This document shows positions 25,263 to 49,373 of a DNA stretch of 64,000 nucleotides, in pieces (the first letter of the stretch is position 1; each line of letters starts with the position of its first letter). The position numbers and the translations under genes are program-made. The stretch lies in the NCBI GenBank assembly GCA_040773245.1, contig JAXGWO010000001.1, positions 6,498 through 70,497 on the forward strand. The letters run 5' to 3'. Origin of the DNA: PVC group bacterium. Its GTDB lineage: Bacteria > Auribacterota > Erginobacteria > Erginobacterales > Erginobacteraceae. Below the pieces are notes generated by a model. That model did no database searches and was not told the DNA's origin. It saw only the letters and a program-made list of their open reading frames with translations.

Positions 25263-27233
25263 TCAGCGGGTGACCGGGAGGTCAGCCGGGCCGCCGAAGT
25301 AAACCCGGCTCAACCCCCGGATGGCCCAGAGCCCGGCGCCCGGCCGGAAGACGGCGGCCTCGGCCAGGCTCTTCCCGTCGAAGTCCGCCGGGACCGGGAG
25401 GTCCCCCCAGCCCCCGAAATGGAACCGGGTCTGGCCGGGGATCGCCCACAAGCCGGTCTCCGGGCGGAAGACCGCCGGCTGGAAACGGTAGGGCCCCGCC
25501 TGGCGGGCCGCGGCGTACCACCCGTAAACCCCGGGGGCGGGGAGGTCGCCGGTCCGGCCGAAATAGAAACGGGTCACCCCCCGCGCCGCCCAGAGACCGG
25601 CGCCGGGGCCGAGAATCGAACTGGGGCGAAAGACTGCCGCTTCCGCGATGCCGTCCCCGGAGAAGTCTCCGCTGAGAGGCCAGTCGAACTGTTGGCCAAA
25701 GTAGAACCGGGTCGTTCCCCGGATCGTCCAGAGGCCGGTTACGTCCCGGAAGACGGCGGGGTCGCAGGCGCCGTCGCCGTCATAATCGGCGGGGACCGGG
25801 GTATCCCGCCAGTCGCCGAGGTAGAAACGGGTCAGGTCCTTCACCGCCCAGAGTCCGTCGGCGGGGCGGAAGACGGCGATGTCGGTAAGCCCGTCGCCGT
25901 CGTAGTCTCCCGGGACCGGGATGAACCGCCCGTCGCCGAAGTAGGTCCTTCCCAGCCCCCGAACCGCCCAGAGGCCCCGGTTGAGGCGGTAGACGGCGAC
26001 GTCGGCTATCCCGTCGCCGTCGTAGTCAGAGGAGGCCGGGCGGGGCGGGATGGCCGGGGGGAAGATGTCGACGATCAGCTGGGCGGCCACGAAGGTGGCG
26101 TTGATATTCTCCCGGTTGTTGAGCAGGACGACGATGACGGCGTCCCGGGAAGGCAGGTAGTACATCCCGCTGGTGTAACCGGCCTCCAGGTCGCCGCCGT
26201 GGCCGACCGAACCGAGCAGCGACGACACCCCCAGCCCGTATCCCCCGCCCGGGGCGGGCCAGGGACCCCAGGTCAGCTGCTCGCGGTGGAGCTCCGGAGA
26301 GATCAGGTCGCCGCGGGCATAAGCCCGTCCCCAGGCCGCCAGGTCGGCGGCGGTGGAGATCATCGCCCCGCAGCCGAATTCCCGGGAGGGCTCGTAGGCG
26401 GCGCAGGCGGTGAGCGCGGTGTACCCGCTCCAGTCCGGGCAGTAGTCGGCGAAGTCGGAAGGGGTCCAGTAGCTGTAAACGGCCGGGGCCGGCATCGCCG
26501 GGTCCGCCGGGTAGCTGGTGTGATCCAGGCCGAGGGGGACCAGGATCCGCTCCCGAATCTCCTCCGGCAGCCTGGTCCCGGTCACTTCCGCCTGGAGAAC
26601 CCACTCGACGATCATCCCCAGAAGAATGTAGTTGGTGTCCTCGTACTCGTACCCGGTGCCGGGGGGCGAGCCCCCGACCGAGACCGCCAGGTCGACCATC
26701 GACTGGGGCGCCCACCCGGCCAGGAGGGAGTCGGCGGGGGTTTGGGAACAGTTGGCGGTCCGGTACTCGGTGCTCGCGGTCCAGTCGCCCAGCCCGCTGG
26801 TGTGGTTCATAAGCTGCCGGACCGTGATCCGGTCGGCCAGGGGGACGCCGAAGCCGCCGTTGAACCGGTCCAGGGTATCTTCCAGGGAGAGCAGCCCCTC
26901 TTCGACCAGCTGAAGGACGACGACGGCGGTGAAGGTCTTGGAGATGGAAGCGATCCGGAAGTAGTCCCCGGCCTCGATCGGCCGGCCGGCCTCCAGGTCG
27001 GCGGTCCCCCGGGTCCAGGTCCCCTCCCAGTAAGGGGTGGCGATGAGCACGATTGCCCCCGGCACCCCCTCCGCCTGGAGGTTATCCAGCCAGCCGGCCA
27101 CGATTTCCTCCGCCAGGGGCGGGGGCGGGCCGGCGAAGACCGGCGGAGGCGTCAGGAACGGCGCAAAAGCAAGACTGGCGACGGATACGGTGGCGATGAT
27201 CGTCTTCACTTGGTTCCTCCTGTTCTCAGGCAC
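25263..27233 (-). CDS. Secreted serine hydrolase of the beta-lactamase/PBP fold (class C-like) fused to a C-terminal FG-GAP/VCBS-like repeat module
   Basis: It has an S-x-x-K motif, FRIASISKTFTAVVVLQL, and an YxN-like region in the N-terminal half. The C-terminal half has about 7 FRPxxGLWA(V/I)RGxTRFYFG repeats. Confidence 0.7.
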   Translation of the reverse strand: MPENRRNQVKTIIATVSVASLAFAPFLTPPPVFAGPPPPLAEEIVAGWLDNLQAEGVPGAIVLIATPYWEGTWTRGTADLEAGRPIEAGDYFRIASISKTFTAVVVLQLVEEGLLSLEDTLDRFNGGFGVPLADRITVRQLMNHTSGLGDWTASTEYRTANCSQTPADSLLAGWAPQSMVDLAVSVGGSPPGTGYEYEDTNYILLGMIVEWVLQAEVTGTRLPEEIRERILVPLGLDHTSYPADPAMPAPAVYSYWTPSDFADYCPDWSGYTALTACAAYEPSREFGCGAMISTAADLAAWGRAYARGDLISPELHREQLTWGPWPAPGGGYGLGVSSLLGSVGHGGDLEAGYTSGMYYLPSRDAVIVVLLNNRENINATFVAAQLIVDIFPPAIPPRPASSDYDGDGIADVAVYRLNRGLWAVRGLGRTYFGDGRFIPVPGDYDGDGLTDIAVFRPADGLWAVKDLTRFYLGDWRDTPVPADYDGDGACDPAVFRDVTGLWTIRGTTRFYFGQQFDWPLSGDFSGDGIAEAAVFRPSSILGPGAGLWAARGVTRFYFGRTGDLPAPGVYGWYAAARQAGPYRFQPAVFRPETGLWAIPGQTRFHFGGWGDLPVPADFDGKSLAEAAVFRPGAGLWAIRGLSRVYFGGPADLPVTR

Positions 27234-27299
27234 CGGTCTGTCAGTGCAGCACGGGCATTCCTGCCCGGGTGCCGCCCCGAACAGACAGGAATGTCTGTT

Positions 27300-28190
27300 C
27301 TACCTATCCGGCCGGGGCGGGAGTTCGAGTCTCCGGCCGAGGATGACGCAGTTGTAAAGGGCGCGGCCGACCTGGTCCCGGGTCAGGTAGGCGTTGGACC
27401 CGGCGGCCTCGTGGAGCGAGACCAAGGTCTGCTCGTCGATGTCGTAGGTCCGGACGGCCGGCAGGTCCGTTATCCAGATCTCCGGGTGCTCCAGGTCGAG
27501 GTCGGAGGAGAAGTGGAGGAGGAGCCGGCCGGCCTCCCAGAAGACCCAGACCTCGTTGGCCACCGGGGAGAGGGGGGAGACGTGGACCGCCCGGCTAAAG
27601 GGATCGGACGAATCCGGGAGGAGGGGGTACTCGTCCTCCAGTTCCTCGTTCACGGCTTCCCGCATCCGCTCCAGGAGTTCGGGGTCGGGGAAACGAGCCT
27701 CCGCCCGGGTGCGGAAGAGGTGGTCGCGCAGCTCGGAGTGAGACATCCGGATTTCTTGGTACTGGGCCGGCCTCTCCTCCGGCTCGGGGTAGCGGGCCAC
27801 GTTGACGATCTTGTAAACTTCGGACTGCACCCTCCGGCCGGAGTGCTCGACCGGGTAGTCCGGCTTCTTCACGGTGACGAAGATGTCCAGCCCGGGGATG
27901 ACGATCTCCCCGAAGCGGCTGAAATCTCCGTCGTCAAGCTCCGGTTTCAGTTCCCGCACCCAGAAGACGACGTCGTCCTCCTCCACCTCCGCCTCCTTCT
28001 CCACGTCGGCTTCGTCCATATACCACCGGTAGAGGTGGCGGACCACCTCGCGGAGGTAGCCCTCGTCCAGCAGCGCCGGATCGACCGAGGGAACCGCCGC
28101 CGGCGGCTCCCCCGGCGAGCGGCAGGAGCAGAGGAGAATCGCCAGAACCCACAGGATGCCGGCCAGAGTTTCTTGCCGTCTGATTTTCAT
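27300..28190 (-). CDS. Hypothetical acidic lipoprotein
   Basis: A signal peptide with an LLCSC lipobox is present. No recognisable domain was found. Confidence 0.4.
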   Translation of the reverse strand: MKIRRQETLAGILWVLAILLCSCRSPGEPPAAVPSVDPALLDEGYLREVVRHLYRWYMDEADVEKEAEVEEDDVVFWVRELKPELDDGDFSRFGEIVIPGLDIFVTVKKPDYPVEHSGRRVQSEVYKIVNVARYPEPEERPAQYQEIRMSHSELRDHLFRTRAEARFPDPELLERMREAVNEELEDEYPLLPDSSDPFSRAVHVSPLSPVANEVWVFWEAGRLLLHFSSDLDLEHPEIWITDLPAVRTYDIDEQTLVSLHEAAGSNAYLTRDQVGRALYNCVILGRRLELPPRPDR

Positions 28191-28892
28191 TCAGCGTCGT
28201 TCCAGGGTGAAGAAGCGGTTGCCGCCGAGGACACCGCCATCGGCGTTGGGGATCCGGACGAACTGCCCCCCGGGGTCATAGTAGTCCCTATCCGCCATCC
28301 AGGCGTAACCCCGTCCGGTGACCGGGATTTTCCCGACCCTCTCCAAGCCGGCGAAGCGGTCGGCCTCCTCGATCCCCCCCCGGACGTAGGCCGCGGCCAG
28401 GTCACGTCCATAGACCAGCAGTCGGGAGAACCGTCCCGGCGGGCCCGAGGCGGCGATCCGCAAAAGGTTGTCGATCCGCTCCTCCACCCGGGGGGAGAAG
28501 ACCGGCCGCCCGGCCCGGTCGCGGTAAAAACCGTCGCACTGTCCCTTCTCGCCGCCGGCGGTGATAACGTCGATCGCGTCCTCGGCCCCCGCCGCGCTCA
28601 GCTCCTCCGGCGCGTAGCCCCCGGGGGTGTGCCGAAGGCGGGACTCCACCACCCAGAGCACGGCCAGCATCGCCGACCGGGTGTCCTTTTCGCTGACGTA
28701 ACCCCGCTCCCCCGGGAAGGGGACCTCGTTGATCAGGAGCCGGGCGATGTATCCGGCGGGATCCCCGGGTGGGAGGAGTTCCACCCCGGCCGGAGCCGGG
28801 GAAACCGCGGCGGCAAGCAGGCAGAAAACACCGGCGAATATACCGCACCCGCGAAACTTGATTGCCGGGTTCGAGCGCATATCCGGGGACAA
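28191..28892 (-). CDS. Hypothetical secreted protein (weak resemblance to SleB-type cell-wall hydrolases)
   Basis: It has an N-terminal hydrophobic segment. The region LLINEVPFPGERGYVSEKDTRSAMLAVLWVVESRL loosely resembles the Hydrolase_2 core. Not confident. Confidence 0.35.
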   Translation of the reverse strand: MSPDMRSNPAIKFRGCGIFAGVFCLLAAAVSPAPAGVELLPPGDPAGYIARLLINEVPFPGERGYVSEKDTRSAMLAVLWVVESRLRHTPGGYAPEELSAAGAEDAIDVITAGGEKGQCDGFYRDRAGRPVFSPRVEERIDNLLRIAASGPPGRFSRLLVYGRDLAAAYVRGGIEEADRFAGLERVGKIPVTGRGYAWMADRDYYDPGGQFVRIPNADGGVLGGNRFFTLERR

Positions 28893-28979
28893 CGCAGCGC
28901 AGGCAGTCCTGCCTGTGCAGCGGACGACACAGGCAGGAATGTCTGTGCTACTTTGCCGACACGGACAGGAATGTCCGTG

Positions 28980-31067
28980 CTACCGGGCCACGGGGATGTC
29001 TCCCGCGGTTCCGAAGTAGGCCCGGGTCAGGCCGCGCAGGGCCCAGAGGCCCGTGGCCTCGCGGAAGACCCCGATCTCGGCCACCCCGTCGCCCTGGTAG
29101 TCCGCCGGGACCAGATCGTCCCCGGCCGCCCCGAAGTAGGCCCGGGTGACCTCGCGCACCGCCCACAATCCGGTGGTCTCCCGGAAGATCGCCGGTTCAA
29201 GTCCCGGGTGGGAGTCGTACCCGGCCAGGACCGGGAGATCCCCCGCTCCGCCGAAGTAGATCCGGGCCCCGGCCCGGGAAGCCCAGAGGCCGGTGGACGG
29301 GCGGAAGATCCCGATCCCGGCGGTGCCGTAGCCGTAATAATCACCGGGGACCGGCTCGTCCCCCGCGGCGCCGAAGTAGGCCCGGGTCAGGCCCCGCACC
29401 GCCCAGAGGCCGGTGCTCTCCCGGAAGACGGCGATGTCGCTCGTCCCGTCGCCGTCGTAGTCCCGGGGCAGCGGGGTGTCGGTCGAACCGCCGAAGTAGT
29501 TCCGGCCGCCGTCCCGGACCGCCCAGAGGCCGGTGCTGTCCCGGAAGATCGCCATATCGGTCGTCCCGTTCCCATTGTAATCCCCGGGAACGGGGGTGTC
29601 CCCCGATGTGCCGAAGTAGGCCCGGGTCACCCCCCGGACCGCCCATAAGCCCGTGGTCTCCCGAAAGATCGCGATATCCGAGGTCCCGTCTCCGTCGTAG
29701 TCGTAGTTCCAGGCGCTGGAAGACCGGGCGGGGAAGACGTAGCGCCTGGCGTAGACGTGCGTATCGGAACCGTCTCTCTGGCTGAATACCACCATCGCGT
29801 GGCCGGAGGGGTCGATCGCGACCTGGGGATCGTCGGCCCAGTTGCCCGGCCCCGAGTCGATGGCCGTGGCCCCGGCCCAGGAAGACCCGTCCCAGGTGTT
29901 GGCCCAGGTCCTGATGTCAGTGACCCCCCCGTCCACGGTGTACTCCGTAAAAGTCGCGACCGCCCGCCCGGAGCCGTCGATCGCGACCGGGGCGGAGTAT
30001 GGGCTGACGAGCCATCCGAAGCTGCCGGCGTCGATGATGGCGGGGCCTGACCAGGACGATCCGTCCCAGCGGTTGGCCCAGACACGGGACTTGGAGCCGT
30101 CCGACTGGACGAAGGTCGCCACCGCCTCGCCTCTCCCGTTGAGCGCGACATTCGAACCGGTCACGGAATCTCCCAGCCCGTTATCGATGGTGGTGGCGCC
30201 CGACCAGGACGAGCCGTTCCACCAGTTGGCGCAGAGGCGGTTGTCGGCGCCGTCGTTGTGGTGGAAGATTGCGAGGGCGTTCCCGGACCCGTCCATCACG
30301 ACCTTGGGCGAGATCGCGTGGCCCGCCCAGCCCATATCGATCGGGGTGATGGCCCCCCAGGCGGCCCCGTCCCAGTGGCGGGCCAGGACGCGGTTGGGCG
30401 ACCCGTACTGCCGCCAGACCGCGACCGCGGCGCCGGTCCGGTCCATCGCGACGCCCGGGGAGTCCGCGTTGGTGGTCGCCAGGTTCCAGCTCACCGTGTC
30501 GAGCTGATGCCAACCCGAGCCTTCCCAGCGGCTGGCTTGAATTATGTCGTACGTAGAGTCCTCCACGTAGACGGCGAGAGCATTGCCGCTCCCGTCCATC
30601 GCGATTGCCGGATAGAGGGTGTCGCCAGGGAGGCCCGGGGCGACCGCCGCGGCGCCGGACCAGGCCGAGCCGTCCCAGTGGTTACCGTAGACGTTGGAAG
30701 CGGAGGTGGTCTCCGTGAAAGCCGCGAGGGCGTTACCGCTGGCGTCCATCGCCACCTGCGCGTCGGATTCATCCCAGGTGCCAGGGATACCGACCGGCTG
30801 GGCCGTTCCCCAGGCCGAACCGTCATAGATATTGGCGTATATTACTGGCGTGTACATAGCCCCCGGTACGATCTCGGACCACTCGGTGAAGGCCGCCGCC
30901 GCCCGGCCGTCGGGGCCGACCGCCACCTGGGGGGTTTCGGCGTCCCGGACCCCGCTGCTGATCACCACGGGACCGGACCAACCCTGCCCAAAAACGGAGC
31001 CGAACGGGAAGATCACAACCGCCAACGCCGACAGTAAGACCAGGAACCCGCAAACGCTTCTGCTCAT
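28980..31067 (-). CDS. Secreted protein with BNR/sialidase-like W-x-G-S-x-W-S repeats and a C-terminal FG-GAP/VCBS-like repeat module
   Basis: It has a signal peptide and repeated DGSGNALA(V/I)F...W(D/N)GSSWSG units. The C-terminus has about 7 [19 protein letters not shown]...DYDGDG repeats. Confidence 0.55.
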   Translation of the reverse strand: MSRSVCGFLVLLSALAVVIFPFGSVFGQGWSGPVVISSGVRDAETPQVAVGPDGRAAAAFTEWSEIVPGAMYTPVIYANIYDGSAWGTAQPVGIPGTWDESDAQVAMDASGNALAAFTETTSASNVYGNHWDGSAWSGAAAVAPGLPGDTLYPAIAMDGSGNALAVYVEDSTYDIIQASRWEGSGWHQLDTVSWNLATTNADSPGVAMDRTGAAVAVWRQYGSPNRVLARHWDGAAWGAITPIDMGWAGHAISPKVVMDGSGNALAIFHHNDGADNRLCANWWNGSSWSGATTIDNGLGDSVTGSNVALNGRGEAVATFVQSDGSKSRVWANRWDGSSWSGPAIIDAGSFGWLVSPYSAPVAIDGSGRAVATFTEYTVDGGVTDIRTWANTWDGSSWAGATAIDSGPGNWADDPQVAIDPSGHAMVVFSQRDGSDTHVYARRYVFPARSSSAWNYDYDGDGTSDIAIFRETTGLWAVRGVTRAYFGTSGDTPVPGDYNGNGTTDMAIFRDSTGLWAVRDGGRNYFGGSTDTPLPRDYDGDGTSDIAVFRESTGLWAVRGLTRAYFGAAGDEPVPGDYYGYGTAGIGIFRPSTGLWASRAGARIYFGGAGDLPVLAGYDSHPGLEPAIFRETTGLWAVREVTRAYFGAAGDDLVPADYQGDGVAEIGVFREATGLWALRGLTRAYFGTAGDIPVAR

Positions 31068-33626: not shown

Positions 33627-34520
33627 GTGCAAATGATGACAAACACCAAGATCGCGTGGCGGGAAACCGGCCGACGGGCCGGCGAGACGGATATGTACAA
33701 CGAGGACGAGATCTGGTCGCGCGGCAGCGGCGACAAGCCGGATATCGGCCGGGCGCTACTGGCCGTCCTCCGCAACCTCGACCGGGCCCTTCCCCTCTCC
33801 CGGAAGCTGAGAGCCCTTTCGATCGGCTCCGGCTCGGAGCCCCAGTTCCGGATCCTCGAAGCCGCCTGCCAGGGCGGGCTCTTTCTTCTCGACATCGACC
33901 AGGTGCCGCTCGACGTGGTCCGCAACCGGTGCCGGAGGCAGGGGCTTTCCGGGGTGGCCACGATCCGGGGGGATTACAACCGCCTGCTCCTTGACCCGGC
34001 CCGGGCCGGAAAATTCCGGGAAACCCGCCTGGCCGGAAAACCGATGGACCTGGTCACCCTCCACCACTCCCTCTACTACTCGAAGCCGGAAGATTGGCAA
34101 CGGCTCTTCGTCAATCTCTGCCGGACAATCCTGGCCCGGCGGGGCGCGATCCACGCCGTGATGATGTCGGCGAGGAGCCGGGACCCCCGTTCGACCACCT
34201 GGCTTTACAACCACTTCGCCGGGAAATATTTCAGCGCCCGCAACGACCAGGACCTGCTGGCTTTCGCCGCCGCCCTGAGAGAAAATCGGGCTCTGAAGGC
34301 AACCCGGATCGTCACCTGGACCAGCGAGGTCCGCTTCAGAGCTGACGACTTTAGGAAGTTTATGGCCGTGGTCTGGATGATCCTTCTCTACCCCAACGTC
34401 CACCGCTACACCCGGCAGCAGCGGGAGGAAATCACCGGGTACTTCCACCGGAAGTTCTGGGAAAAGAAGCAGCCCCTCATCCAGCACCAGGATCACCTGG
34501 TTATCTACCGGGACCTTTAA
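33627..34520 (+). CDS. Putative class I SAM-dependent methyltransferase
   Basis: Motif I is LSIGSGSE, post-I is LLDID, and a motif II-like MDLVTLHHSLYY is present. The call is weak. Confidence 0.4.
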   Translation: MQMMTNTKIAWRETGRRAGETDMYNEDEIWSRGSGDKPDIGRALLAVLRNLDRALPLSRKLRALSIGSGSEPQFRILEAACQGGLFLLDIDQVPLDVVRNRCRRQGLSGVATIRGDYNRLLLDPARAGKFRETRLAGKPMDLVTLHHSLYYSKPEDWQRLFVNLCRTILARRGAIHAVMMSARSRDPRSTTWLYNHFAGKYFSARNDQDLLAFAAALRENRALKATRIVTWTSEVRFRADDFRKFMAVVWMILLYPNVHRYTRQQREEITGYFHRKFWEKKQPLIQHQDHLVIYRDL

Positions 34521-35043
34521 CCGGCGGGTGGGTACCCCGGATCACCAGGCAAAAGACGATGCCGGCGGCGGCGCAGAGGGCGTTGATGAGGATGTCCTCG
34601 GGATCCCCCTTGCGGTCGGGGAGATAGTGCTGGAGGATTTCATCGAGAACGGAGAGGGCGAGGGCGATCTCCGTCCCGGTGCGGAGGGAGAAGAGCCGGA
34701 CCGAGAGAAAGCCGAAGCTCCCGAAGAGGGGGATATGGAGCCAGCGGGCCGGGTACTTCCCGACGTGGATCATCAGCGCCGCCGCCAGCAAAACCATCCA
34801 GGCCAGGTGGAGCAGTCCGGCCCAGCCCAACCGGCGGAAGAGGAGGCGGGCGGCGAGGAAGAGGGCCAGACCCACCAGGACCCCCAAAATCCAGGCCAGC
34901 AACGTCTCGCCGAGATTGACCTCCAGGGAGCGCTGGAGAGGACGGCCGAAATACGCCAGCGAAGGGATGGCCGCCAGGTTCAGCACCCAGAGGAACCCCG
35001 TCCAGGGTTTGCCTGCCATCGAGTCTCGCGCTCTATTGATCAT
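34501..35043 (-). CDS. VanZ-like family membrane protein
   Basis: It has 4 TM helices and a C-terminal LDEILQHYLPDRKGDPEDILINALCAAAGIV that matches the VanZ pattern. Confidence 0.5.
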   Translation of the reverse strand: MINRARDSMAGKPWTGFLWVLNLAAIPSLAYFGRPLQRSLEVNLGETLLAWILGVLVGLALFLAARLLFRRLGWAGLLHLAWMVLLAAALMIHVGKYPARWLHIPLFGSFGFLSVRLFSLRTGTEIALALSVLDEILQHYLPDRKGDPEDILINALCAAAGIVFCLVIRGTHPPVKGPGR

Positions 35044-35265: not shown

Positions 35266-36309
35266 TCAGAAGCCGGTGACGAGGAGAGACTCGAAGCCGA
35301 CCTGCCGGACCTCCCCGTCCGCCGTCACCACCGTGCAGGTTCCCTCGCCCACGGTGACGACGGCGGCGGAGACCGGCTCGTCGCCGGGCCCGGGGAATCG
35401 GACCCGCATCCCCTCCTCCAGGGCCCGGACCCGGAACCGCTCCCGGTCCAGGACCTCCTCGGGCCGGGAGGGGTCGAGGTAGCGGACGGTGAACATCCCC
35501 GCCGAGACCCCGATGACGGTGGCGGGGTGCCAGCCGTCCTCCCCGTATTCCGCAACCATAATCCCCGTCCCCAGTTCCAGGTCCCAGGAACCCGGGCCCA
35601 GCTCCTCGGCCTCGAGGTCCGCGACCCCGGGGGGCTCCGGAGGAGGGGGGGGCGGGACTTCGTCCCGCGGGATCTCGTCAAACGGCAGGTTGTAGGGCCA
35701 GACCTCGTCCGGGGAGCTTTCCTCGGGCGGCATCTCCGGGTCGGCGGAACCCTCCCCCGCCTGGAGCGCTTCCGCCCGGACGGCGGAGGGCGTCACCCGG
35801 GGCGCCTCGGGAGCGAGTGCCGGGGACGGGGTGGCGGCAAATTTCGCGGCGGCGATGGTGCTCGAGCCGGGGAAGGGAACGGCCGGGGATATCCGCGGCG
35901 AAGGCGCCGGCCGGACCGGGGGGGCGATGGCGAAGAACTGCTCCGCCAGCTCCGCGTCGTTCCGGAAGAGAACCACCCTATACTCCCCCGGGGGGAGGTC
36001 CTCGGCGTGGAGGTCGCAGACCGCTTCCGGGGCCGGGGGGTCCGGCTTCTCGATGGTCAGGGAGATCAGCTTCCAGCCCCCCGGTTCGTCGCGGAAGAAG
36101 AGCTGGAAGCCGATCTGGTGGTCGAAGGGGGCGTCCTCGAGGTAGACCGCCTGCCCTTTCGCCCCGGCGGCCAGGGGGAGGCCGATCCTCCCTCCGGCAG
36201 TGTCCTCCAGGTAAAACTCCCAGTCCGCCTCCCGGGAGCAGGCGGAGAAGAGATAAAAAAGGGAGAGCAGCGCCAGGACCGGCGCTGCTCTCCCCCTTAA
36301 CGCTCTCAC
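35266..36309 (-). CDS. Hypothetical Pro/Glu-rich lipoprotein
   Basis: A signal peptide with a lipobox (LFSAC) is present. No recognisable catalytic motif was found. Confidence 0.4.
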   Translation of the reverse strand: MRALRGRAAPVLALLSLFYLFSACSREADWEFYLEDTAGGRIGLPLAAGAKGQAVYLEDAPFDHQIGFQLFFRDEPGGWKLISLTIEKPDPPAPEAVCDLHAEDLPPGEYRVVLFRNDAELAEQFFAIAPPVRPAPSPRISPAVPFPGSSTIAAAKFAATPSPALAPEAPRVTPSAVRAEALQAGEGSADPEMPPEESSPDEVWPYNLPFDEIPRDEVPPPPPPEPPGVADLEAEELGPGSWDLELGTGIMVAEYGEDGWHPATVIGVSAGMFTVRYLDPSRPEEVLDRERFRVRALEEGMRVRFPGPGDEPVSAAVVTVGEGTCTVVTADGEVRQVGFESLLVTGF

Positions 36310-36328: not shown

Positions 36329-37345
36329 TCAATAGGCCTTGTAGGTGTAGACGTAGACCGCGTTGCCCTTGTAGGAGTTGGTCACCGTGGAGTTGAGGAT
36401 GGCCAGGCAGTTTTCGTCGTTGGAGGTGTCGGCGGAGGCGGTCCAGTTGAAGGAGCCGGTGATCGTCCGCGGGGAAGAGGTGGTCCCGCCGTCGATGGCC
36501 ATAAACTTGTCGTGGAGCAGGCCGCTGTAGTTGTCCTTGCGGACCAGGCAGCCGGCGTTCTTCAGGTTGGTGTACTGGCAGTAGGAGCTGCCGGCCTGCC
36601 AGGCGTCGAAGGTGCCCTTGATGGTGACCCCGGCGTTCTTCCGGGCGACCATCGCGTCCTTGATCCCGGCATCGGTGAAGGTGAAGATGTTGAAGTAGAT
36701 GCTGGTGTTGGCGGTGGCGATGTGAGACTTGACGGCGTCGCGGACCAGGGCCTTGGGCGCGAAGTAGGTGTAGACGGTCGAGCCGTCAACCGTGTCGGTC
36801 CCGGAGTAGTTGGTCTTGTAGCTGCCGAACTTCCCGGCGTACATCTGGAGGAACTCGTTCTTGAAGCGGGTGACGATTCCGGTGTTGCCGGTGATGATGA
36901 TGACGTTGTTCTTGTCGACGGTGGTCTGCTCGGTGGTGAAGTTGTAGGAGCCGGTTACCAGCTTGGTCCCGTCGGCGACGATGAATTTGTTGTGCATCAG
37001 GGTGGTGCGGTTGTCGCAGACGATCGGGATGCCCTTGCTGGCCAGCAGGTCGTAGGAAGCCTGGTAGCCGCTCTTGTAGCGGTAGTCGGTGTCGGTGACG
37101 ATCCGGACGTCCACACCCCGGGTCTTGGCAGCGGCCAGGGCATTGACAATGTTGGGCTCGTTCATACCGTAAATGGCGACATAGCAGTAGCTGGTCGCCC
37201 CGTTGATGACGTCGCGAACCCGAGTGTTGATGTAATTCGCACTCGGGGGGTTGTTGTAGGTTATCGTCATCGTGGCCTCGACCGGGGAAACGATCGCCGC
37301 CACCATCGCCATCGCCGCCAGCACCGCCAGAACCTTCACTCTCAT
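36329..37345 (-). CDS. Secreted phospholipase D / nuclease family protein (two HKD motifs)
   Basis: Two HxKxxxxD motifs are present: TTLMHNKFIVADG and GLLHDKFMAIDGG. The start was refined to MRVKVLAV (signal peptide), which has a strong RBS aaggagg 6 nt upstream. Confidence 0.75.
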   Translation of the reverse strand: MRVKVLAVLAAMAMVAAIVSPVEATMTITYNNPPSANYINTRVRDVINGATSYCYVAIYGMNEPNIVNALAAAKTRGVDVRIVTDTDYRYKSGYQASYDLLASKGIPIVCDNRTTLMHNKFIVADGTKLVTGSYNFTTEQTTVDKNNVIIITGNTGIVTRFKNEFLQMYAGKFGSYKTNYSGTDTVDGSTVYTYFAPKALVRDAVKSHIATANTSIYFNIFTFTDAGIKDAMVARKNAGVTIKGTFDAWQAGSSYCQYTNLKNAGCLVRKDNYSGLLHDKFMAIDGGTTSSPRTITGSFNWTASADTSNDENCLAILNSTVTNSYKGNAVYVYTYKAY

Positions 37346-37393
37346 CGCCGCCCTCCTTGGGGTTGGCTTTGTTCTTGTTGACGCCATTAGTTA

Positions 37394-37410
37394 GAGCATA
37401 CCCCGTGCCA
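37394..37410 (-). promoter_or_regulatory. Sigma-54 (RpoN) promoter match: -24 TGGCAC, -12 TGC
   Basis: On the minus strand the sequence is CTGGCACGGGGTATGCT, with GG-N10-GC spacing, about 50 nt upstream of the refined PLD start. An AT-rich tract that could be an IHF site lies upstream at about 37420-37465. The NtrC-type activator gene is immediately adjacent. Coordinates are accurate to about 2 nt. Confidence 0.5.
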
Positions 37411-37553
37411 GGAGGGCCGCGGCGGGATAAATATCTATAATATATTGATCGACAATCTACTATGGATTCACGCCGTGGTGCAGTTCCGGGGTGGTTCGGG
37501 CATTCTGGCCCGAAACCGGGGCGGGAGAGAGAAAAAACTGGGCCAGATTGGCC

Positions 37554-38936
37554 CTACTTTTCACCGGTCGGACGGGGGCGGTCCTTCGGCGAGATCCGGT
37601 AGAGGGCGAGCTTCCGTTTCAGGGAGCGGAGGGGGAAGTCGAGCTCCCGGGCGGCCCGGGTGACGTTCCCCCGGGTGCGGCGCAGGGCCTCCTCGATCAG
37701 GTGCTTCTCGAAGATCCCCACCTTCTCCTTCAGCGAGTCCCCGTTGGCGATGGGGAGGCGGGCGGGCCGGATTTCGCCCCGGACGGTCTCGGGGAGATCC
37801 TCCCGGGAGATGGTCTTCTTCCCCTCCCCGGCGGCCGCGCCCTTGAGGACGTTCTCCAGCTCCCGGATGTTCCCCGGCCAGTCGTGGGCGAGGAGGGCGT
37901 TCATCGCCCCGGGATCGACCCGCACCCCGCCGGGGTTGACCTGGCTGAGAAAGTGGCCGACCAGGAGCGGGATGTCCTCCTTGCGCTCCCGCAGCGGCGG
38001 CAGGCGGAAGCTGAGGACCTGGAGGCGGTAGTAGAGGTCCCGGCGGAACTTCCCGGCGGCCGCCGCCCGTCCCAGGTCCTCGTTGGTGGCGGCGATCACC
38101 CGGATGTCGACCCGGACCGGGCGGTCGGAGCCCAGGGGGTCGAACTGCTTCTCCTCCAGGGCCTGGAGCAGCTTGGCCTGGGCGAAGAGGCTCAGGGTCG
38201 CCACCTCGTCCAGGAAGAGGGTTCCCCGGTCGGCGGAGAGGATCTTCCCCTTCCGCTCCTGGACCGCCCCGGTGAAGGCGCCCTTCTGGTGGCCGAAGAG
38301 CTCGCTCTCGAGCAGGGTGTCGGGGAGGGCGCCGCAGTTGACGGTGACAAAGGGTCCCTTCGCGCGGGAACTCTGCTGGTGGATGGCCCGGGCGACCACG
38401 GACTTCCCGGTTCCGGTCTCGCCGGCGAGCGAGACGCCCAGGTCGATCCCCGCGGCCTTGGCGATGAACTCGTAGACCGCCCGCATCGCCGGGCTCCTCC
38501 CCACCAGGCCGGGGTAGGGGGAGACCGCCCCCAGCTGGCGGCGCAGCGACCTCACCTCGTCGAGGAGCGCCCGGTGGGCGGCGATCTTCTCCAGGACGGC
38601 CAGCAGTTCCTCCCCGTCGACCGGCTTGGTCAGGTAGTCGAAGGCCCCCTTCCGCATCGCCTCCACCGCGTCCTTGATCGACCCGAAGGCGGTCATCACC
38701 AGCCAGGTCACGTCCGGGAACTTCTCCCCGACCCGCTCCCCCAGCTCGAGTCCGTTCATCTCCGGCATCCGGAAATCGGTGAGGAGGACTTCGAACTCCC
38801 CCTTCTCCAGCATCTTCAGGGCCCGGGAGGGTTTGGCCGCGGCCGCGGCCGCGTGGCCGGACATCTCCAGGAAGGTGGAGACGCTCTTGAGGATGTTCTC
38901 CTCGTCGTCCACCACCAGGATCTTCAGCTTTTTCAT
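37554..38936 (-). CDS. Sigma-54-dependent response regulator (NtrC family: REC + AAA+ sigma-54 activator + HTH)
   Basis: The REC domain starts MKKLKILVVDDEEN...D(F)RMPEMNGLEL. The AAA+ domain has GETGTGKSVVARAIH, and the GAFTGA motif is present as KGAFTGA. The C-terminal HTH reads TRGNVTRAARELDFPLRSLKRKL. The start ATG overlaps the upstream histidine kinase stop in a 4-nt ATGA overlap. Confidence 0.9.
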   Translation of the reverse strand: MKKLKILVVDDEENILKSVSTFLEMSGHAAAAAAKPSRALKMLEKGEFEVLLTDFRMPEMNGLELGERVGEKFPDVTWLVMTAFGSIKDAVEAMRKGAFDYLTKPVDGEELLAVLEKIAAHRALLDEVRSLRRQLGAVSPYPGLVGRSPAMRAVYEFIAKAAGIDLGVSLAGETGTGKSVVARAIHQQSSRAKGPFVTVNCGALPDTLLESELFGHQKGAFTGAVQERKGKILSADRGTLFLDEVATLSLFAQAKLLQALEEKQFDPLGSDRPVRVDIRVIAATNEDLGRAAAAGKFRRDLYYRLQVLSFRLPPLRERKEDIPLLVGHFLSQVNPGGVRVDPGAMNALLAHDWPGNIRELENVLKGAAAGEGKKTISREDLPETVRGEIRPARLPIANGDSLKEKVGIFEKHLIEEALRRTRGNVTRAARELDFPLRSLKRKLALYRISPKDRPRPTGEK

Positions 38937-40285
38937 CTTGAGCCCCCGACCGGCAGTTCGATGGTGAACCTGGCCCCCCTCCCGGGCTCGCTCTCCACGG
39001 AGACGGTCCCGTGGTGGCACTCCACGGTCCGGTAGACCTGGGAGAGGCCGATCCCGCTCCCGGCGGCCTTGGTGGTGAAGAAGATGTCGAAGATGTTCTT
39101 CTGGACCGCGGGCTCGATCCCGCAGCCGCCGTCCGCGAACTCGAGGACGATCCGGTCCCCGGCCCGCCGGGTCGCCACCCGGATCCGGCCCCCATCCTCC
39201 ACCGCCTCCAGGGAGTTGCGGAGGAGGTTGAGGACGGCGCGGTGGAACTCGTCCCGGTCGAGGCTGATCCGGGGCAGCCGCGGCTCCAGCGACCGGGAGA
39301 GGCGGACCCGGCGGTGGGCCAGCTCGTCCCGCAGGCTCCGGATCACCCGCTCGATCACCGCGTTGACGCCGGCCTTCTCCAGCCGGGGGGGGGCGGGCCG
39401 GCCGAAGGTGATCAGCCGGTCGACCAGGCTGATCAGCCGCTGGATCTCCTCCCTGATGATGGCCACGCTCTCCCGGCAGTACTTCTCCGCCCGGTCCCGC
39501 TCCGTCCCCGGGGCGAGCGACTTCTCGATCACGGCGGCGGAGAAGAAGATCGAGTTCAGGGGGTTCTTGACCGCGTGGGCCACCCCGGCCACCAGCTTGG
39601 AGGTGGCGGCCAGTTTCTCGGACTGGATCAGCTTGCGCTGGGTCGCCTTCAGGTCGGCCAGCGACCGGCGCAGCTCGGCCGTCCGCTCGGCCACACTCGC
39701 CTCCAGGGTCCGGGCGTACTCCCGCAGCTCCCGGTAGAGCCGGGCGTTCTCGATGGCGATGGCGATATTGCCGCAGATGTGGTTGAGGACCTCCTCGTCC
39801 CGGCGGCTGTAGGCGCCCTCCTCTTTGCTGCCGAGGTTGAAGGTGCCGATCACCCGGTCGCGGTAGACCAGGGGGACGACGATCCCCGACCTGACCCCGG
39901 TCCGAACGATGTACTCGTCCTCCCGGAAGCGGGGGTTTTTCTCGTAGCTCCTCCGGATCAGGGTCTTCCCGCTCCTGATCACCCGCTCCACCCCGGTCCC
40001 CTCCATCGGGAAGACCCGGCCCCGGGCCACCTGCTTGCTCGTCCGGGGCTTGAGGAAGTAGACGATGTTGACCTGGCCCGATTGGTCGACCAGGTCCACG
40101 CTGGCCCGGTCGAAACTGATCAGCTTCTTGGTCTCCCGGAAAATGACCCCCAGCACCTCGGTGAGGTCGAGGCTGGAGGTGATGGCCCGGGTGATCTCGC
40201 CGAGGATCCGCAGCTGCCGGGATTCGGCCGAGGCGGCGGTCCGGGCGTCCCTGGATGGGGGTCGGGCGATCTTCATCGGCGGCAA
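38933..40285 (-). CDS. Sensor histidine kinase with an N-terminal GAF domain (cytoplasmic)
   Basis: The GAF domain reads ILGEITRAITSSLDLTEVLGVIFRETKKLISFDRASVDLVD. The HisKA region has HAVKNPLNSI. The HATPase_c region has NLLRNSLEAV...GCGIEP...GSGIGLS. No TM segment was found. Confidence 0.85.
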   Translation of the reverse strand: MPPMKIARPPSRDARTAASAESRQLRILGEITRAITSSLDLTEVLGVIFRETKKLISFDRASVDLVDQSGQVNIVYFLKPRTSKQVARGRVFPMEGTGVERVIRSGKTLIRRSYEKNPRFREDEYIVRTGVRSGIVVPLVYRDRVIGTFNLGSKEEGAYSRRDEEVLNHICGNIAIAIENARLYRELREYARTLEASVAERTAELRRSLADLKATQRKLIQSEKLAATSKLVAGVAHAVKNPLNSIFFSAAVIEKSLAPGTERDRAEKYCRESVAIIREEIQRLISLVDRLITFGRPAPPRLEKAGVNAVIERVIRSLRDELAHRRVRLSRSLEPRLPRISLDRDEFHRAVLNLLRNSLEAVEDGGRIRVATRRAGDRIVLEFADGGCGIEPAVQKNIFDIFFTTKAAGSGIGLSQVYRTVECHHGTVSVESEPGRGARFTIELPVGGSR

Positions 40286-40416
40286 TATAGCAGATGCGGA
40301 ATCGGGGGGACAAGAATGAAGACTGTTCCGCCGGAAGACAGGGGTTCAGAGAATCCACTTCCGCCGGATGTTGCGAAGGCGGACCGGGAAGATCCGGCCG
40401 GCTCCTGCTTCCCCCG

Positions 40417-41334
40417 TCATCCCCGGGACGTCCCCGACGGATCCGGGACCGGACCGGGCGTCTCCACTTTCGGGCGGGCGAGGGCCCGGATGAAGGAAAC
40501 CGCGCCCTGGAGGAAGAAGATCCCGGCCACCCAGTAGTAAAACAGCCGGGGGCGGGTCAGGATCAGAACCCCGACGACGATATAGGCCAGCCCGGTGACC
40601 AGGAAACTGATTCTTTCGGCGGCTTTCATCTGCATAAACTCCTTTTGAAATAATCTTGCCAGGTAACCGACCCCCCGGACGAAGAATATGATCGCCGCCC
40701 AGTAGCGGATCATCTCCGGGCGGAAGTATACCAGGCCGGCCATCAAAACGTAGAGCACCCCGGTATAGAGGAGACCGGCCTTCTCCGTGCTTCCGGTCTT
40801 CCTGCTGATCGCGTCCGCCAGCCGGAGGAAGTTGTTCCGTCTCAGCAATGAACCGGTGAAGGCGGACTGCGGGTCGGAGGCGGCCAGGTTCTTCCTCATT
40901 GAGACCCAGAAGTTATGGAAGAAGATGATGTTGAGGAAGACGGCGGCCAGGAAGAGGCTCAGGTAGTAGGTGAGCCGGCTGTAATAATCCCCCCAGGTCA
41001 GCAGCAGCCCGATCTCGTCGAAGAAGAGGCCCAGCCCGGCGCCGTACATCACCGCCAGGTGCCGGCGGGAGAGCCGCTCGCTGCCGGCCAGCGCCCACCA
41101 GCCGGCCAGGCCGATCAGGAGGATCCCGATGTAGAAGTGGTGGATGTGGTAACCGAAGAGGATGATGTTGCTCCCGAGGTGGAACCTGACCCCGGGGAGT
41201 TCGCCCATCTCGGCGGCCCGGGCGAACTCGGTGTCGGCCGCCCCGGCCAGGAAGACGCTGAGCCGGATGTATACCAACGCCGCCAGGAAGGAGAGGGCGA
41301 CGAGGAAGGGGATCTCTTTTTCCTTCCGGATCAT
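40417..41334 (-). CDS. Hypothetical polytopic membrane protein
   Basis: It has about 8 predicted TM helices. Its start overlaps the stop of the upstream PAS histidine kinase by 4 nt. Confidence 0.45.
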   Translation of the reverse strand: MIRKEKEIPFLVALSFLAALVYIRLSVFLAGAADTEFARAAEMGELPGVRFHLGSNIILFGYHIHHFYIGILLIGLAGWWALAGSERLSRRHLAVMYGAGLGLFFDEIGLLLTWGDYYSRLTYYLSLFLAAVFLNIIFFHNFWVSMRKNLAASDPQSAFTGSLLRRNNFLRLADAISRKTGSTEKAGLLYTGVLYVLMAGLVYFRPEMIRYWAAIIFFVRGVGYLARLFQKEFMQMKAAERISFLVTGLAYIVVGVLILTRPRLFYYWVAGIFFLQGAVSFIRALARPKVETPGPVPDPSGTSRG

Positions 41335-42467
41335 ACTGACGGCTGCCCGGCCAGGGGGCAGGTGAAGCGGAAGACGGTCCCCGCCTCGGCGGAGGTGGTG
41401 AAATCGACTTTCCCCTTGAGGATCTCCTCCCCGAAGAGCTTCATCGAGTAGGTGCCGAAACCCCGCCCGGGTCCATCCTTGGTGCTGAAACTCCGCTGGA
41501 ACATACGCAACACCGCATCCGGGGGGATCTCACCGGCGTTCCAGACCAGGAAGGAGAGGCGGCGATCACGGATCTCCGTCCAGATCCTGATCTTTCCCCC
41601 CGGCCCGGTGGCCTCCAGGGCGTTGATGACCATATTTCCCAGCACTCTCAGGAGGAGGGCGGGATCGGTTTCGATCCAGGCCTCCCGGCCGAGCGCGCCG
41701 GTAACTATCTCGCGGTCCCGGGCCGCGGCGTGATTGGCGAAGAGGGCGGCGAGCTCTTTCAGGACCGAACCGGCCGGGATCCGCCGCCAGTCCGGACGAT
41801 AGGAGAAATCGCCGCTACCTACCAGCTGCCGCTGGATCGCCACCTCGCCCGTCAGGCGGGTGACGGCCTGCCGCACCATCCCGGCCAATTCCGAGGGATC
41901 CTCCTCCGCCAGCATCTCGCTCGCCCCCTTAAGGACGTTGAGCAGATTGTTGACGTCGTGGAAGAACGACCTTTCCAGGGCGGCCCACCGTTCCCGGCGG
42001 GTAATGTCCTCGAGGAAGAGGAGGCCGTACCTTCCCCCCTCCAGGGTGAGCGGGCAGGACCGGACGGAGAACGCCAGGTCCACGTGCCCGCCGTTCCGGC
42101 GGGCGCGGAGGGCGCAGATCTTCTCCGCCGGCACCCCCTCCTCCAGGCAGGCGACCAGCGCGGCCGCCGCCCCGCAGGAGGGGCAGTACTTCGTGGTGCC
42201 GCAGCCGGCCGGGCCCTCGCCGGCGTGGACGCACTTCAGGGCCTCCCCCGGCCGCATCCCCAGGAGCCGTTGCGGATCATCAAGGCCGAGCATCTTCAGG
42301 AAGGCGTCGTTGAGGGCGACGACCTGGCGCTGGCGATTCACCACGGCCAGGACCATCCCCACCGAGTGAAGCAGGGCGGAGACCAGTCCGCTGGAGGCGA
42401 CCAGATCCAGCTGGCGGGCCAGCTCCTTCTCCCCGGTTCTCCCCGGGGGGGCAAAGAAGGTTTCCAT
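41331..42467 (-). CDS. Sensor histidine kinase (PAS-like sensor, HisKA + HATPase_c)
   Basis: A Cys-rich PAS-like region is present. The H-box reads FFHDVNNLLNVL. The N box is NMVINALEA, and the G-box region is GRGFGTYSMKLFGEEILKG. Confidence 0.75.
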   Translation of the reverse strand: METFFAPPGRTGEKELARQLDLVASSGLVSALLHSVGMVLAVVNRQRQVVALNDAFLKMLGLDDPQRLLGMRPGEALKCVHAGEGPAGCGTTKYCPSCGAAAALVACLEEGVPAEKICALRARRNGGHVDLAFSVRSCPLTLEGGRYGLLFLEDITRRERWAALERSFFHDVNNLLNVLKGASEMLAEEDPSELAGMVRQAVTRLTGEVAIQRQLVGSGDFSYRPDWRRIPAGSVLKELAALFANHAAARDREIVTGALGREAWIETDPALLLRVLGNMVINALEATGPGGKIRIWTEIRDRRLSFLVWNAGEIPPDAVLRMFQRSFSTKDGPGRGFGTYSMKLFGEEILKGKVDFTTSAEAGTVFRFTCPLAGQPSV

Positions 42468-47837: not shown

Positions 47838-49373
47838 TTGCCAGAACCGGCGGAATGGGCCAGAATGCCCGCTGCGGATATGAAACCGGGTCCCCAGTTA
47901 GTTGCCCTGCTGCTCGCCCTGGCCGCCGTTCCGGGCGGGGAAGGGGAGCCGCTTCCCCGCCCGGAGATAGCCCCGGGATCGGTGGTCCGGCTCAGCCAGT
48001 CCGACCCCGCCGGTTACGTCAGGACAGGGAACGACGCCCGCGGCCCCGGGCTTCTCCTCACCTTCCCCCCGGTCGAGATGACCGTTACCTCCGACCCGGC
48101 GGTCCGGCTGGCGGGGGCGACGGAGGCGGGGGCCCGGGTCCTGATCAACGGGAAGCCGGTCAAGGTCTATCACGCCGGTTCCTTCGTCGCCCTGGTTCCC
48201 CTCGCCGGCGGGGAGAACTCGATCATCGTGACCGCCGCCGGCGGGAAGGGAGAGACCGTCTGTCCCCTGGCCATCCGCCGGGAGAAGACCGCCCCCGCCG
48301 GGAAGGAGCGGACCGAATTCCACCTCCCCCTTCCCGGCCGGATCGCGGCCGGGCCGGAGCCGGTACGATCGCTCCCGGCCGGACCGCGGATTCTCACCGC
48401 CCCCCCGGGGGCGGCCCTCCGGATCACCGGGAGGGAGGGGAGCTGGCTGAGGGCCGACCTCGGCGGCGGTATCTCCGGTTGGATCCCCGCCTCCGCCGTG
48501 GAACTGGGGGACGAACCGCCGCCGGAACCGGTCCGGGTGGGCGACGTCAGCTTCAGCGCGGAAAAGTCGGAGGCCTGGTTCTCCCTGGAGGGCCCGGCGC
48601 CCGCCCGGGTCGACTACCTCGGGCCCGAAGAACTGGACCTGGTCTTTCACCACGCCGCTCCGGCCACCGAGACGATCGATCTCGGGGAGTGGGAGGGGAT
48701 CTGCGTGCCGGCCCCCTCCGGGGAGGGGACCGCGGTCTACCGGCTCCGCGGCGGCCTGGACTGTCACCGCTGGTCGCTGGACTGGCTGCCGGGGGGTTAC
48801 CGCCTCCGCTGGCGGGGACGGCCCCGCCGGGAGGAGGGACCGGTCGGCCTCGACCCCGGCCACGGGGGAAGGCAGCGGGGAGCGGTCAGCCCCTCCGGGG
48901 TAACGGAAAAGGACGCCAACCTCGCCCTGGCCCGGGCGGTGGCGGCGGAACTGGCGAAGGCGGGTGTTACGTCGTTCCTGACCCGGGACGGTGACCGGAC
49001 GCTGGGCCTGGAGGAACGCATCGAGGCCGCCCGCTCCAGGGGGGCCGGGGTCTTGGTCTCCCTCCACCACAACTCGGTCGGCGACGCACGCGATCCGCTC
49101 TCCGGATCCGGCTACACCATCTTCTACTACCATCCTCCGGGGAGGGAGCTGGCCGGGTGCATCCACCGCGCCCTGGAAGCGGCCGGCCGGGAGGGCGCCG
49201 GGGTCCGCCGGCGGAGCCTGGCCCTGATCCGGCCCCCCGACCTGGTGACCGCCCTGGTCGAGACCGCCTACCTCTCCCACCCGGAAGACGAGGCGGAGAT
49301 CCTCGATCCCGCCGTCCGGAACGATACCGCCCGGGCCATCGCCCGGGCCATCCTTGACTATCTCGACCGTTGA
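47838..49373 (+). CDS. N-acetylmuramoyl-L-alanine amidase (Amidase_3 catalytic domain at the C-terminus; N-terminal domain unknown)
   Basis: The C-terminal Amidase_3 pattern reads GLDPGHGG...GVTEKDANLALARAVAAELAKAGV...RDGDRTLGLEERIEAARSRGAGVLVSLHHNS. The signal peptide probably starts at MKPGPQ (about 47880). The tracked start is a TTG. Confidence 0.75.
   Translation: MPEPAEWARMPAADMKPGPQLVALLLALAAVPGGEGEPLPRPEIAPGSVVRLSQSDPAGYVRTGNDARGPGLLLTFPPVEMTVTSDPAVRLAGATEAGARVLINGKPVKVYHAGSFVALVPLAGGENSIIVTAAGGKGETVCPLAIRREKTAPAGKERTEFHLPLPGRIAAGPEPVRSLPAGPRILTAPPGAALRITGREGSWLRADLGGGISGWIPASAVELGDEPPPEPVRVGDVSFSAEKSEAWFSLEGPAPARVDYLGPEELDLVFHHAAPATETIDLGEWEGICVPAPSGEGTAVYRLRGGLDCHRWSLDWLPGGYRLRWRGRPRREEGPVGLDPGHGGRQRGAVSPSGVTEKDANLALARAVAAELAKAGVTSFLTRDGDRTLGLEERIEAARSRGAGVLVSLHHNSVGDARDPLSGSGYTIFYYHPPGRELAGCIHRALEAAGREGAGVRRRSLALIRPPDLVTALVETAYLSHPEDEAEILDPAVRNDTARAIARAILDYLDR

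Follow-up and report, generated by a model that had tools for sequence, protein, structure and literature searches.

In the 64,000-nucleotide (nt) stretch of contig JAXGWO010000001.1 analyzed here (referred to as the window; GC content of 66.6%), the genes for a GAF-domain sensor histidine kinase, an NtrC-type response regulator, an exported HKD protein of the phospholipase D (PLD) superfamily, and a lipoprotein are best explained as a four-gene cassette in two transcription units. The first unit would provide a dedicated signaling pair, and the second one a sigma-54-dependent operon that extends past the PLD gene to include the downstream lipoprotein gene. For this explanation as a whole, we estimate a probability of about 0.7. 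A preliminary description of the sequence had proposed that a sigma-54 promoter upstream of the PLD gene is under the control of an adjacent kinase/NtrC pair, and this regulatory model is very likely correct, judging from the conserved gene order, the invariant promoter core, the enhancer dyads, and the co-occurrence of the promoter with its putative activator. The elements of the locus are as follows.

40284-40313, minus strand: sigma-70-like promoter of the kinase/regulator operon, TTGTCC-18-TATATT with TG
38933-40276, minus strand: sensor histidine kinase, 447 amino acids (aa); Pfam GAF, HisKA, and HATPase_c
37554-38936, minus strand: NtrC-type response regulator, 460 aa; Pfam Response_reg, Sigma54_activat, AAA_lid_14, and HTH_8
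37540-37554, minus strand: distal dyad UAS1 (upstream activating sequence), GGGCCAATCTGGCCC; center at about -163 from the predicted transcription start
37497-37511, minus strand: proximal dyad UAS2, GGGCCAGAATGCCCG; center at about -120 from the predicted start
37426-37463, minus strand: AT-rich tract between enhancer and promoter, with the IHF-like core GATCAATATATTA inside
37395-37410, minus strand: predicted sigma-54 promoter, TGGCACGGGGTATGCT; -24 GG at 37409-37408 and -12 GC at 37397-37396
36329-37345, minus strand: exported HKD (PLD-superfamily) protein, 338 aa; two PLDc_2 domains (Pfam)
36251-36298, minus strand: stem-loop AAGGGGGAGAGCAGCGCCG/UGGCGCUGCUCUCCCUUUU; 19-bp stem followed by a T-run
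35266-36309, minus strand: lipoprotein, 347 aa; GTG start at 36309, lipobox LFSAC

According to the proposed mechanism, the sigma-70-like promoter would serve unit 1, which encodes the GAF kinase and the translationally coupled regulator. The kinase would phosphorylate the regulator, which would then bind two GCCA-N3-TGGC dyads centered at about -163 and -120 relative to the transcription start, contact the sigma-54 holoenzyme at TGGCACG-N4-ATGCT with the aid of the AT-rich and possibly IHF-bent spacer, and open the promoter using ATP. The transcript of unit 2 would specify a Sec-exported two-HKD phosphodiesterase, which most likely degrades periplasmic or extracellular nucleic acid, followed by a lipoprotein of a rare family. 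A hairpin at the junction of the two genes would most likely end or stabilize most transcripts after the enzyme gene and limit translation of the lipoprotein, so that much more enzyme than lipoprotein would be made. Unit 1 is defined by sequence and domains, while unit 2 is inferred from sequence together with strong comparative footprints.

The order of kinase, regulator, and PLD gene, all on the minus strand, agrees with the preliminary description at identical or very similar coordinates, and the ATGA overlap of the kinase stop with the regulator start is real (ggctcaagATGAaaaag). Some of the gene boundaries had to be revised. The kinase start, formerly placed at TTG 40285, is more likely ATG 40276, a choice with which the gene caller agrees in L094. 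The intergenic region, formerly given as 145 bp, spans 208 bp from the regulator stop to the PLD ATG; the former value applies to the distance up to the promoter. The PLD gene starts at ATG 37345, which is preceded by AAGGAGGG; this start was preferred over ATG 37387, which would give the maximal open reading frame (ORF).

Predicted sigma-54 promoter and enhancer dyads

The -24/-12 element that had been proposed upstream of the PLD gene is present as TGGCACGGGGTATGCT (37410-37395, minus strand). Exactly 10 nt separate its GG from its GC, and 51 nt separate the -12 GC from the downstream ATG, in accordance with the earlier estimate of about 50 nt. The element departs from 1 of the 12 bases that TGGCAC-N5-TTGCW specifies and represents the sole match on both strands of the 64 kb to TGGCAC-N6-TGC (0.14 expected) as well as to TGGCACG-N4-TTGCW with up to 1 mismatch (0.19 expected). 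A match arose by chance in 14 to 17% of shuffles, and the window match alone is only suggestive.

The decisive support for the predicted sigma-54 promoter comes from comparative conservation. Orthologs of the PLD protein (63 to 96% identity) were traced to their contigs, and the order of kinase, regulator, PLD gene, and downstream ORF was found in seven distinct loci, i.e., the window, L088, L001, L003, L005, L090 (whose contig is cut inside the regulator gene), and L091; the same cassette was also found in the runs SRR27544752 and SRR27544757. The genes that flank the four-gene set vary by locus and include an ABC transporter, GH64, amine oxidases, and a Na/H exchanger, among others. The maintenance of the inner order in the presence of different outer flanks indicates that the four genes travel as a cassette. 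The spacer between the regulator and the PLD gene has a mean column identity of 51% across the loci, and its four conserved blocks correspond to the regulator stop with the first dyad, the second dyad, the -24/-12 element, and the ribosome-binding site. The promoter core TGG[CT]A[CT]-N5-[TA]TGC is kept in all seven orthologous loci.

A metagenome scan with the PLD protein returned 2 loci only, and in the genome collection, the best match, from a Hydrogenedentota metagenome-assembled genome, had 54% identity, without close relatives. The regulator is absent from 80 genome-collection loci (L008 to L087; PLD identity of ≤54%, tblastn of 5- to 6-kb flanks) and likewise from L092 and L093 (PLD identity of 51 to 52%, gene tables of 5- to 6-kb flanks). 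No sigma-54 match was seen in the four upstream regions inspected by eye (L008, L009, L092, and L093), and the PLD gene of L093 has a 12/12 sigma-70 promoter instead. The sigma-54 site is accordingly present in 7/7 loci with the regulator, compared to 0/4 inspected upstream regions without it.

It is conceivable that the -24/-12 match is nonfunctional and that transcription of the PLD gene results from regulator operon read-through or starts at an unrecognized sigma-70 promoter in the AT-rich tract. The frequency of chance matches in a single window, the use of sigma-70 promoters by distant PLD homologs, and the -10-like hexamers that could hide in an AT-rich spacer are all compatible with this scenario, but the core is invariant in seven diverged spacers, no sigma-70-like site was found in the regulator-PLD spacer, and a dedicated activator and an enhancer at the canonical distance co-occur with the site. 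We regard this scenario as extremely improbable.

An inverted-repeat activator site, which the preliminary description had expected upstream of the promoter, was found in two copies, as GCCA-N3-TGGC dyads at 37554-37540 and 37511-37497. The distal dyad and the regulator's TAG stop codon share one base, the first of the dyad and the last of the codon. The GCCA-N3-TGGC core of this dyad is invariant in 7/7 loci, with the center at -152 to -165, and the proximal dyad is likewise present in all seven as GCCA-N3-TG(G/C)C, with the center at -120 to -122 in each of them. The distance from promoter to ATG, in turn, varies between 35 and 105 nt. The combination of a constant enhancer-promoter spacing with a free leader length is indicative of an activator site, whereas a terminator requires neither. 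The outer bases of the dyads (GGGCCA.., GCGCCA.., GTGCCA..) shift along with the divergence of the regulator.

The dyads might nevertheless be mere terminators or RNA structures at the end of the kinase/regulator operon, in which case the regulator would act elsewhere and another activator would serve the promoter. In the window, the distal dyad folds into a 6-bp hairpin with TTTTTT behind it, the proximal one can fold as well (-14.3 kcal/mol), and the symmetric flank change from GGGCCA/TGGCCC to GCGCCA/TGGCG preserves pairing. However, the T-run is not conserved after either dyad, the stems comprise merely 4 to 6 bp, and the proximal copy, whose palindrome is imperfect in most loci, is held at a position that a terminator would not need. 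Moreover, the sigma-54 site and the regulator co-occur strictly, and the window encodes one GAFTGA protein. The NtrC site is TGCACCA-N3-TGGTGCA, and the architecture of the dyads resembles it. A role as plain terminators was rejected on the basis of the fixed promoter spacing, and we consider this alternative highly improbable. As part of an enhancer, the distal dyad, which folds as a weak hairpin of -11 kcal/mol followed by a T-run, may at the same time terminate the regulator operon.

Single matches to a relaxed dyad are not meaningful, because GGCCA-N3-TGGCC with up to 1 mismatch is overrepresented throughout the window (20 matches, e.g., at 9417-9429 and 47858-47870, versus 4.8 expected from shuffles); only the conserved pair is informative. 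The excess is probably a codon or composition effect. The match at 47858 has the core of the proximal dyad and is located at the start of an ORF (ATGGCCAGAATGCCC).

The AT-rich tract had been suggested as a possible IHF site. The sequence GATCAATATATTA (37450-37438, at about -59) matches 12/13 positions of the IHF core, but this strict match is restricted to the window. A tract with such an IHF-like core could bend the DNA between enhancer and promoter.

Several observations weigh against the regulatory model. TGGCACGGGGTATGCT carries an A instead of a T at the first base of TTGC, and the transcription start, which was set 12 nt downstream of the C in the -12 GC, is a predicted position only (about 37384-37386, i.e., about 39 nt upstream of the PLD ATG). 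The distal dyad is readable as a small terminator hairpin, and the orthologs keep the AT-richness and AA-N4-TT but not the strict IHF consensus WATCAA-N4-TTR. Finally, a six-frame regular-expression search of the window detected no RpoN-box protein, i.e., no rpoN gene.

The two-component pair and comparable systems

The kinase comprises GAF (Pfam E-value of 1.7e-17), HisKA (6.5e-9), and HATPase_c (8e-23) domains, and its H-box AHAVKNPL contains the conserved His. The maximum 19-residue hydropathy is 1.17, and the lack of a hydrophobic, membrane-spanning segment is indicative of a cytoplasmic protein, in line with the cytoplasmic GAF sensor that had been proposed. The promoter of the operon, TTGTCC-18-(TG)TATATT, was found once versus 0.3 matches expected; its sequence is also present in L001 and absent from L003 and L005. 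The -10 element ends 7 nt ahead of ATG 40276, and a Shine-Dalgarno sequence is missing, which is why the mRNA of the kinase may be leaderless or near-leaderless.

The regulator has Response_reg (3.5e-26), Sigma54_activat (6.8e-66), and HTH_8 (6.6e-11) domains. Its receiver shows DD at positions 10-11, D54 in LLTDFRMP, and K in LTKP, the AAA+ domain has the Walker A motif GETGTGKS and a GAFTGA loop, and a Fis-type helix-turn-helix (HTH) is located at the C terminus. It is the sole GAFTGA protein in the window, and orthologs with 54 to 85% identity occupy the same position in the other cassette loci. The best NCBIfam models are AtoC, NtrC, and ZraR for the regulator (426 versus a cutoff of 714 bits, 389 versus 559 bits, and 352 versus 760 bits, respectively) and AtoS and ZraS for the kinase transmitter, whose matches also remain below the equivalog cutoffs. 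The GlrR cutoff was not reached either. Since the scores are all far below these cutoffs, the pair is not an ortholog of any named system.

A paralogous regulator with 58% identity to that of the window and a different target was found in L096. It is associated with a perfect TGCCA-N3-TGGCA dyad at -153 and, downstream of it, with a GG-N10-GC element, CGGCAT-N5-TTGCT, which was picked by eye, has an off-consensus first base, and was missed by the strict pattern. In L096 (3199-11368) and L097 (2967-11376), regulators that are 57 to 58% identical to that of the window lie beside a REC-GAF-HisKA-HATPase hybrid kinase. Next come a sigma-54-like site and a giant ORF (1,600 to 1,650 aa, no Pfam match), and L096 has an additional single REC gene in between. 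The arrangement has the appearance of a sister system whose exported target differs.

With NtrB/NtrC-glnAp2, AtoS/AtoC, and ZraS/ZraR, the cassette shares a histidine kinase and a REC-AAA+(GAFTGA)-Fis-HTH regulator next to the target gene as well as two dyads about 110 to 165 bp upstream of a GG-N10-GC promoter, separated from it by a putatively bendable spacer. Unlike in these systems, the kinase is a soluble GAF protein, the dyad core is GCCA-N3-TGGC, and the place of the metabolic targets is taken by an exported HKD enzyme and a lipoprotein. The system is an ordinary kind of bacterial switch in an uncultured lineage, and it would work like the members of the NtrBC/AtoSC/ZraSR class.

Sigma-54 control of a PLD protein has a precedent in Chlamydia trachomatis, where the PLD-family protein CT084 is among the listed direct targets of the sigma-54 regulon (CtcB/CtcC), whose function was linked by the authors to membrane reorganization and secreted effectors (PMC7482065). 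The comparison with CT084 is at the level of the superfamily, and CT084 belongs to a dispersed regulon, in contrast to the adjacent cassette with its own enhancer dyads described here. More generally, control by sigma-54 is well established for exterior-facing functions (PMC3162934), and the cassette leaves the knowledge of sigma-54 regulation unchanged. It does provide a clean case from uncultured bacteria in which a dedicated two-component/sigma-54 switch is amenable to experiments. As the promoter, the dyads with their spacing, and the target operon are defined by comparative footprinting, the switch could be rebuilt in a heterologous host in order to find the ligand of the GAF domain.

The exported HKD enzyme

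Both HxK(x)4D motifs of the PLD protein are intact (H118/K120/D125/N135 and H278/K280/D285/N300), and their residues are invariant or nearly so in an alignment of 32 homologs. The N terminus carries a Sec-type signal peptide (MRVKVLAVLAAMAMVAAIVSPVEA, hydropathy of 2.20) with predicted cleavage after VEA. The protein had been described as secreted; export is supported by this signal, but the final location may be the periplasm, as neither a lipobox nor a C-terminal sorting signal is present in the protein.

The AlphaFold model shows a two-lobed HKD fold (pLDDT of 94). In the fold search, it matched 7e0m (a deposited phospholipase D), PLD3, and PLD4 at a TM of about 0.75, and furthermore vaccinia F13 and PLD1/2. 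In the PDB profile search, Zucchini/MitoPLD (7.8e-25), Nuc (1byr; 9.5e-24), and NucT (1e-9) ranked ahead of 7e0m (5e-7), and the best NCBIfam model was NucT (2.6e-16) versus cardiolipin synthase (1.2e-3). Nuc (pKM101/Salmonella), NucT (Helicobacter pylori), and Zucchini/MitoPLD are single-HKD homodimeric nucleases with which the protein shares the HKD catalytic motif, and Nuc and NucT are also exported proteins. In contrast to them, two Nuc-like halves are fused in one chain of 338 aa, a pseudo-dimer like PLD3/PLD4 and F13. More distant homologs are fused to HhH/ComEA-type or lamin-tail domains, the latter of which accompany extracellular nucleases (PMC8289736).

The closest characterized relatives (Nuc, NucT, and Zucchini) and the DNA-binding fusions of homologs favor an exported nuclease over a phospholipase, and we consider this assignment probable. 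Of the former designation as an HKD phospholipase or nuclease, the two-domain HKD protein is retained, and the sequence points to a nuclease of the Nuc type more than to a lipase or toxin. Two points temper this assignment: the matches to the NucT model are far below the family cutoffs, and the fold cannot settle the choice between a nuclease and a lipid-acting HKD enzyme, as structures of both sorts were matched, with 7e0m at the top.

Under the same regulation, the enzyme could instead act on lipids, as a periplasmic or secreted phospholipase D, a lipid remodeler, an effector, or a phosphate or lipid scavenger. Pfam assigns only the generic PLDc_2 domain, the match to 7e0m is accompanied by those to PLD1/2, JGI names homologs "cardiolipin synthase-like," and the sigma-54 target CT084 of Chlamydia is annotated as a phosphatidylcholine-hydrolyzing PLD (PMC7482065). 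On the other hand, each half is nearest to Nuc, NucT, and Zucchini by sequence (cardiolipin synthase E-value of 1e-3), and the HhH and lamin-tail fusions of homologs are typical of DNA-binding extracellular nucleases. The structural matches PLD3 and PLD4, which are as good as 7e0m, are 5' exonucleases, and the compact chain of two Nuc-sized halves is devoid of extra lipid-binding insertions. A lipid-acting enzyme is unlikely in our view, although it deserves serious consideration. If the enzyme is a nuclease, the cassette would link a cytoplasmic signal to the degradation of environmental or periplasmic nucleic acid, which would be relevant for nutrient scavenging or biofilm remodeling.

The lipoprotein, its embedded hairpin, and the surroundings of the cassette

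The GTG start of the lipoprotein gene lies 20 nt after the PLD stop. The lipobox Cys (C24) is nearly invariant in an alignment of 10 sequences, and the L001 ortholog lacks it. The structural model consists of a beta-sandwich (residues ~28 to 130, pLDDT of ~90), followed by a Pro-rich linker that is disordered and, at the C terminus, by tandem Tudor/KOW-like barrels; a fold search retrieved generic beta-sandwich and Tudor/KOW matches only and nothing informative on function. In all cassette loci, as well as in L092, the N-terminal domain (~130 aa) is encoded behind the PLD gene. Its identity is 53 to 88% in the five closest cassette loci, and the copies of L090 and L091 are recognizable, more distant homologs. 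Depending on the locus, the protein occurs in a short form (123 to 149 aa, beta-sandwich only) or in a long form (330 to 373 aa, with Pro-rich linker and Tudor-like barrels), as seen from a comparison of L001 (9025-9441), L090 (2969-3340), and the window (35266-36309). The family is rare: an exhaustive search with the N-terminal domain identified 12 clusters in 1.84 billion representatives, and a word-indexed homology search with the full-length protein gave 3 matches, probably owing to the Pro-rich linker. A protein of 3,313 aa (P0127) contains about 24 tandem copies of a segment that matches residues 48 to 106, and the domain is hence also a repeat module in large, probably surface, proteins.

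The hairpin begins 11 nt past the start codon of the lipoprotein gene, inside the signal-peptide codons. Its 19-bp stem has a free energy of -39.7 kcal/mol (z-score of -6.3) and is followed by UUUUUU. The stem is kept in all cassette loci, and two of its pairs show compensatory changes; the hairpin of L092 was left out of the pair counts as it shares no column register with the others. Each cassette has a single copy of the motif, which is absent from the rest of the window and from 85 other loci; this uniqueness rules out a dispersed repeat. Rfam and tRNA scans of the window gave no matches.

The hairpin is predicted to be a partial terminator, a 3'-end stabilizer, and/or a translational brake. 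Intercistronic stem-loops that set unequal expression within operons are exemplified by the hairpins of the puf operon and the REP elements in malEFG. As in these cases, a very stable hairpin is found directly after the first cistron, which predicts an excess of the upstream product; in contrast to them, it is located inside the signal-peptide codons of the downstream gene and is specific for the gene pair. Such a coding-region location is atypical for an intrinsic terminator. The predicted function is further weakened by the T-run, which is interrupted in L001 and weak in L092, and by the lower stem, which encodes the conserved residues G-R-A ... L-L-S-L, so that part of the stem conservation could be exerted at the protein level. 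Apart from the hairpin in the coding region and the rare lipoprotein partner, every part of the system has an obvious textbook counterpart.

The locus L092 lacks the two-component system, and its PLD protein and lipoprotein show 52% and 38% identity, respectively; a 22-bp hairpin of another sequence is nevertheless located at the same place. This arrangement indicates that enzyme, hairpin, and lipoprotein form the older unit, to which the sigma-54/two-component control was added in one clade. A more far-reaching interpretation, which is rather doubtful as a whole, would regard this module as the conserved core of the system, with a hairpin that is retained in altered sequence even under another type of promoter. 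By translation-coupled attenuation, the hairpin could fix the nuclease:lipoprotein ratio at a high value. The lipoprotein could then be a surface tether, an inhibitor, or a substrate-binding partner of the nuclease, and the capture of the module by a GAF-kinase/NtrC pair in one uncultured clade would have made extracellular or periplasmic nucleic acid degradation responsive to a cytoplasmic metabolite.

Directly upstream of the cassette, a 305-aa ORF (40417-41334, minus strand) has no family match, and a possible membrane protein of 72 aa lies within its frame (ATG 40635, ribosome-binding site AAAGGAG). A PAS-HATPase_c histidine kinase (41331-42467, minus strand) without an adjoining cognate response regulator lies upstream of this ORF. 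Downstream of the cassette are a VanZ-like membrane protein (34501-35043, minus strand), which is also found within ≤7 kb of the cassette in L001, and a 297-aa ORF without a family match (33627-34520, plus strand). Among the large ORFs of the window are those of 1,444 aa (12461-16795, minus strand; GEVED and SBBP beta-propeller repeats), 1,409 aa (25419-29648, plus strand; no Pfam match), and 695 aa (28980-31067, minus strand; FG-GAP). Some of the very large ORFs may be spurious, as they overlap on opposite strands at 67% GC; the genuine ones suggest a rich exported or surface proteome.

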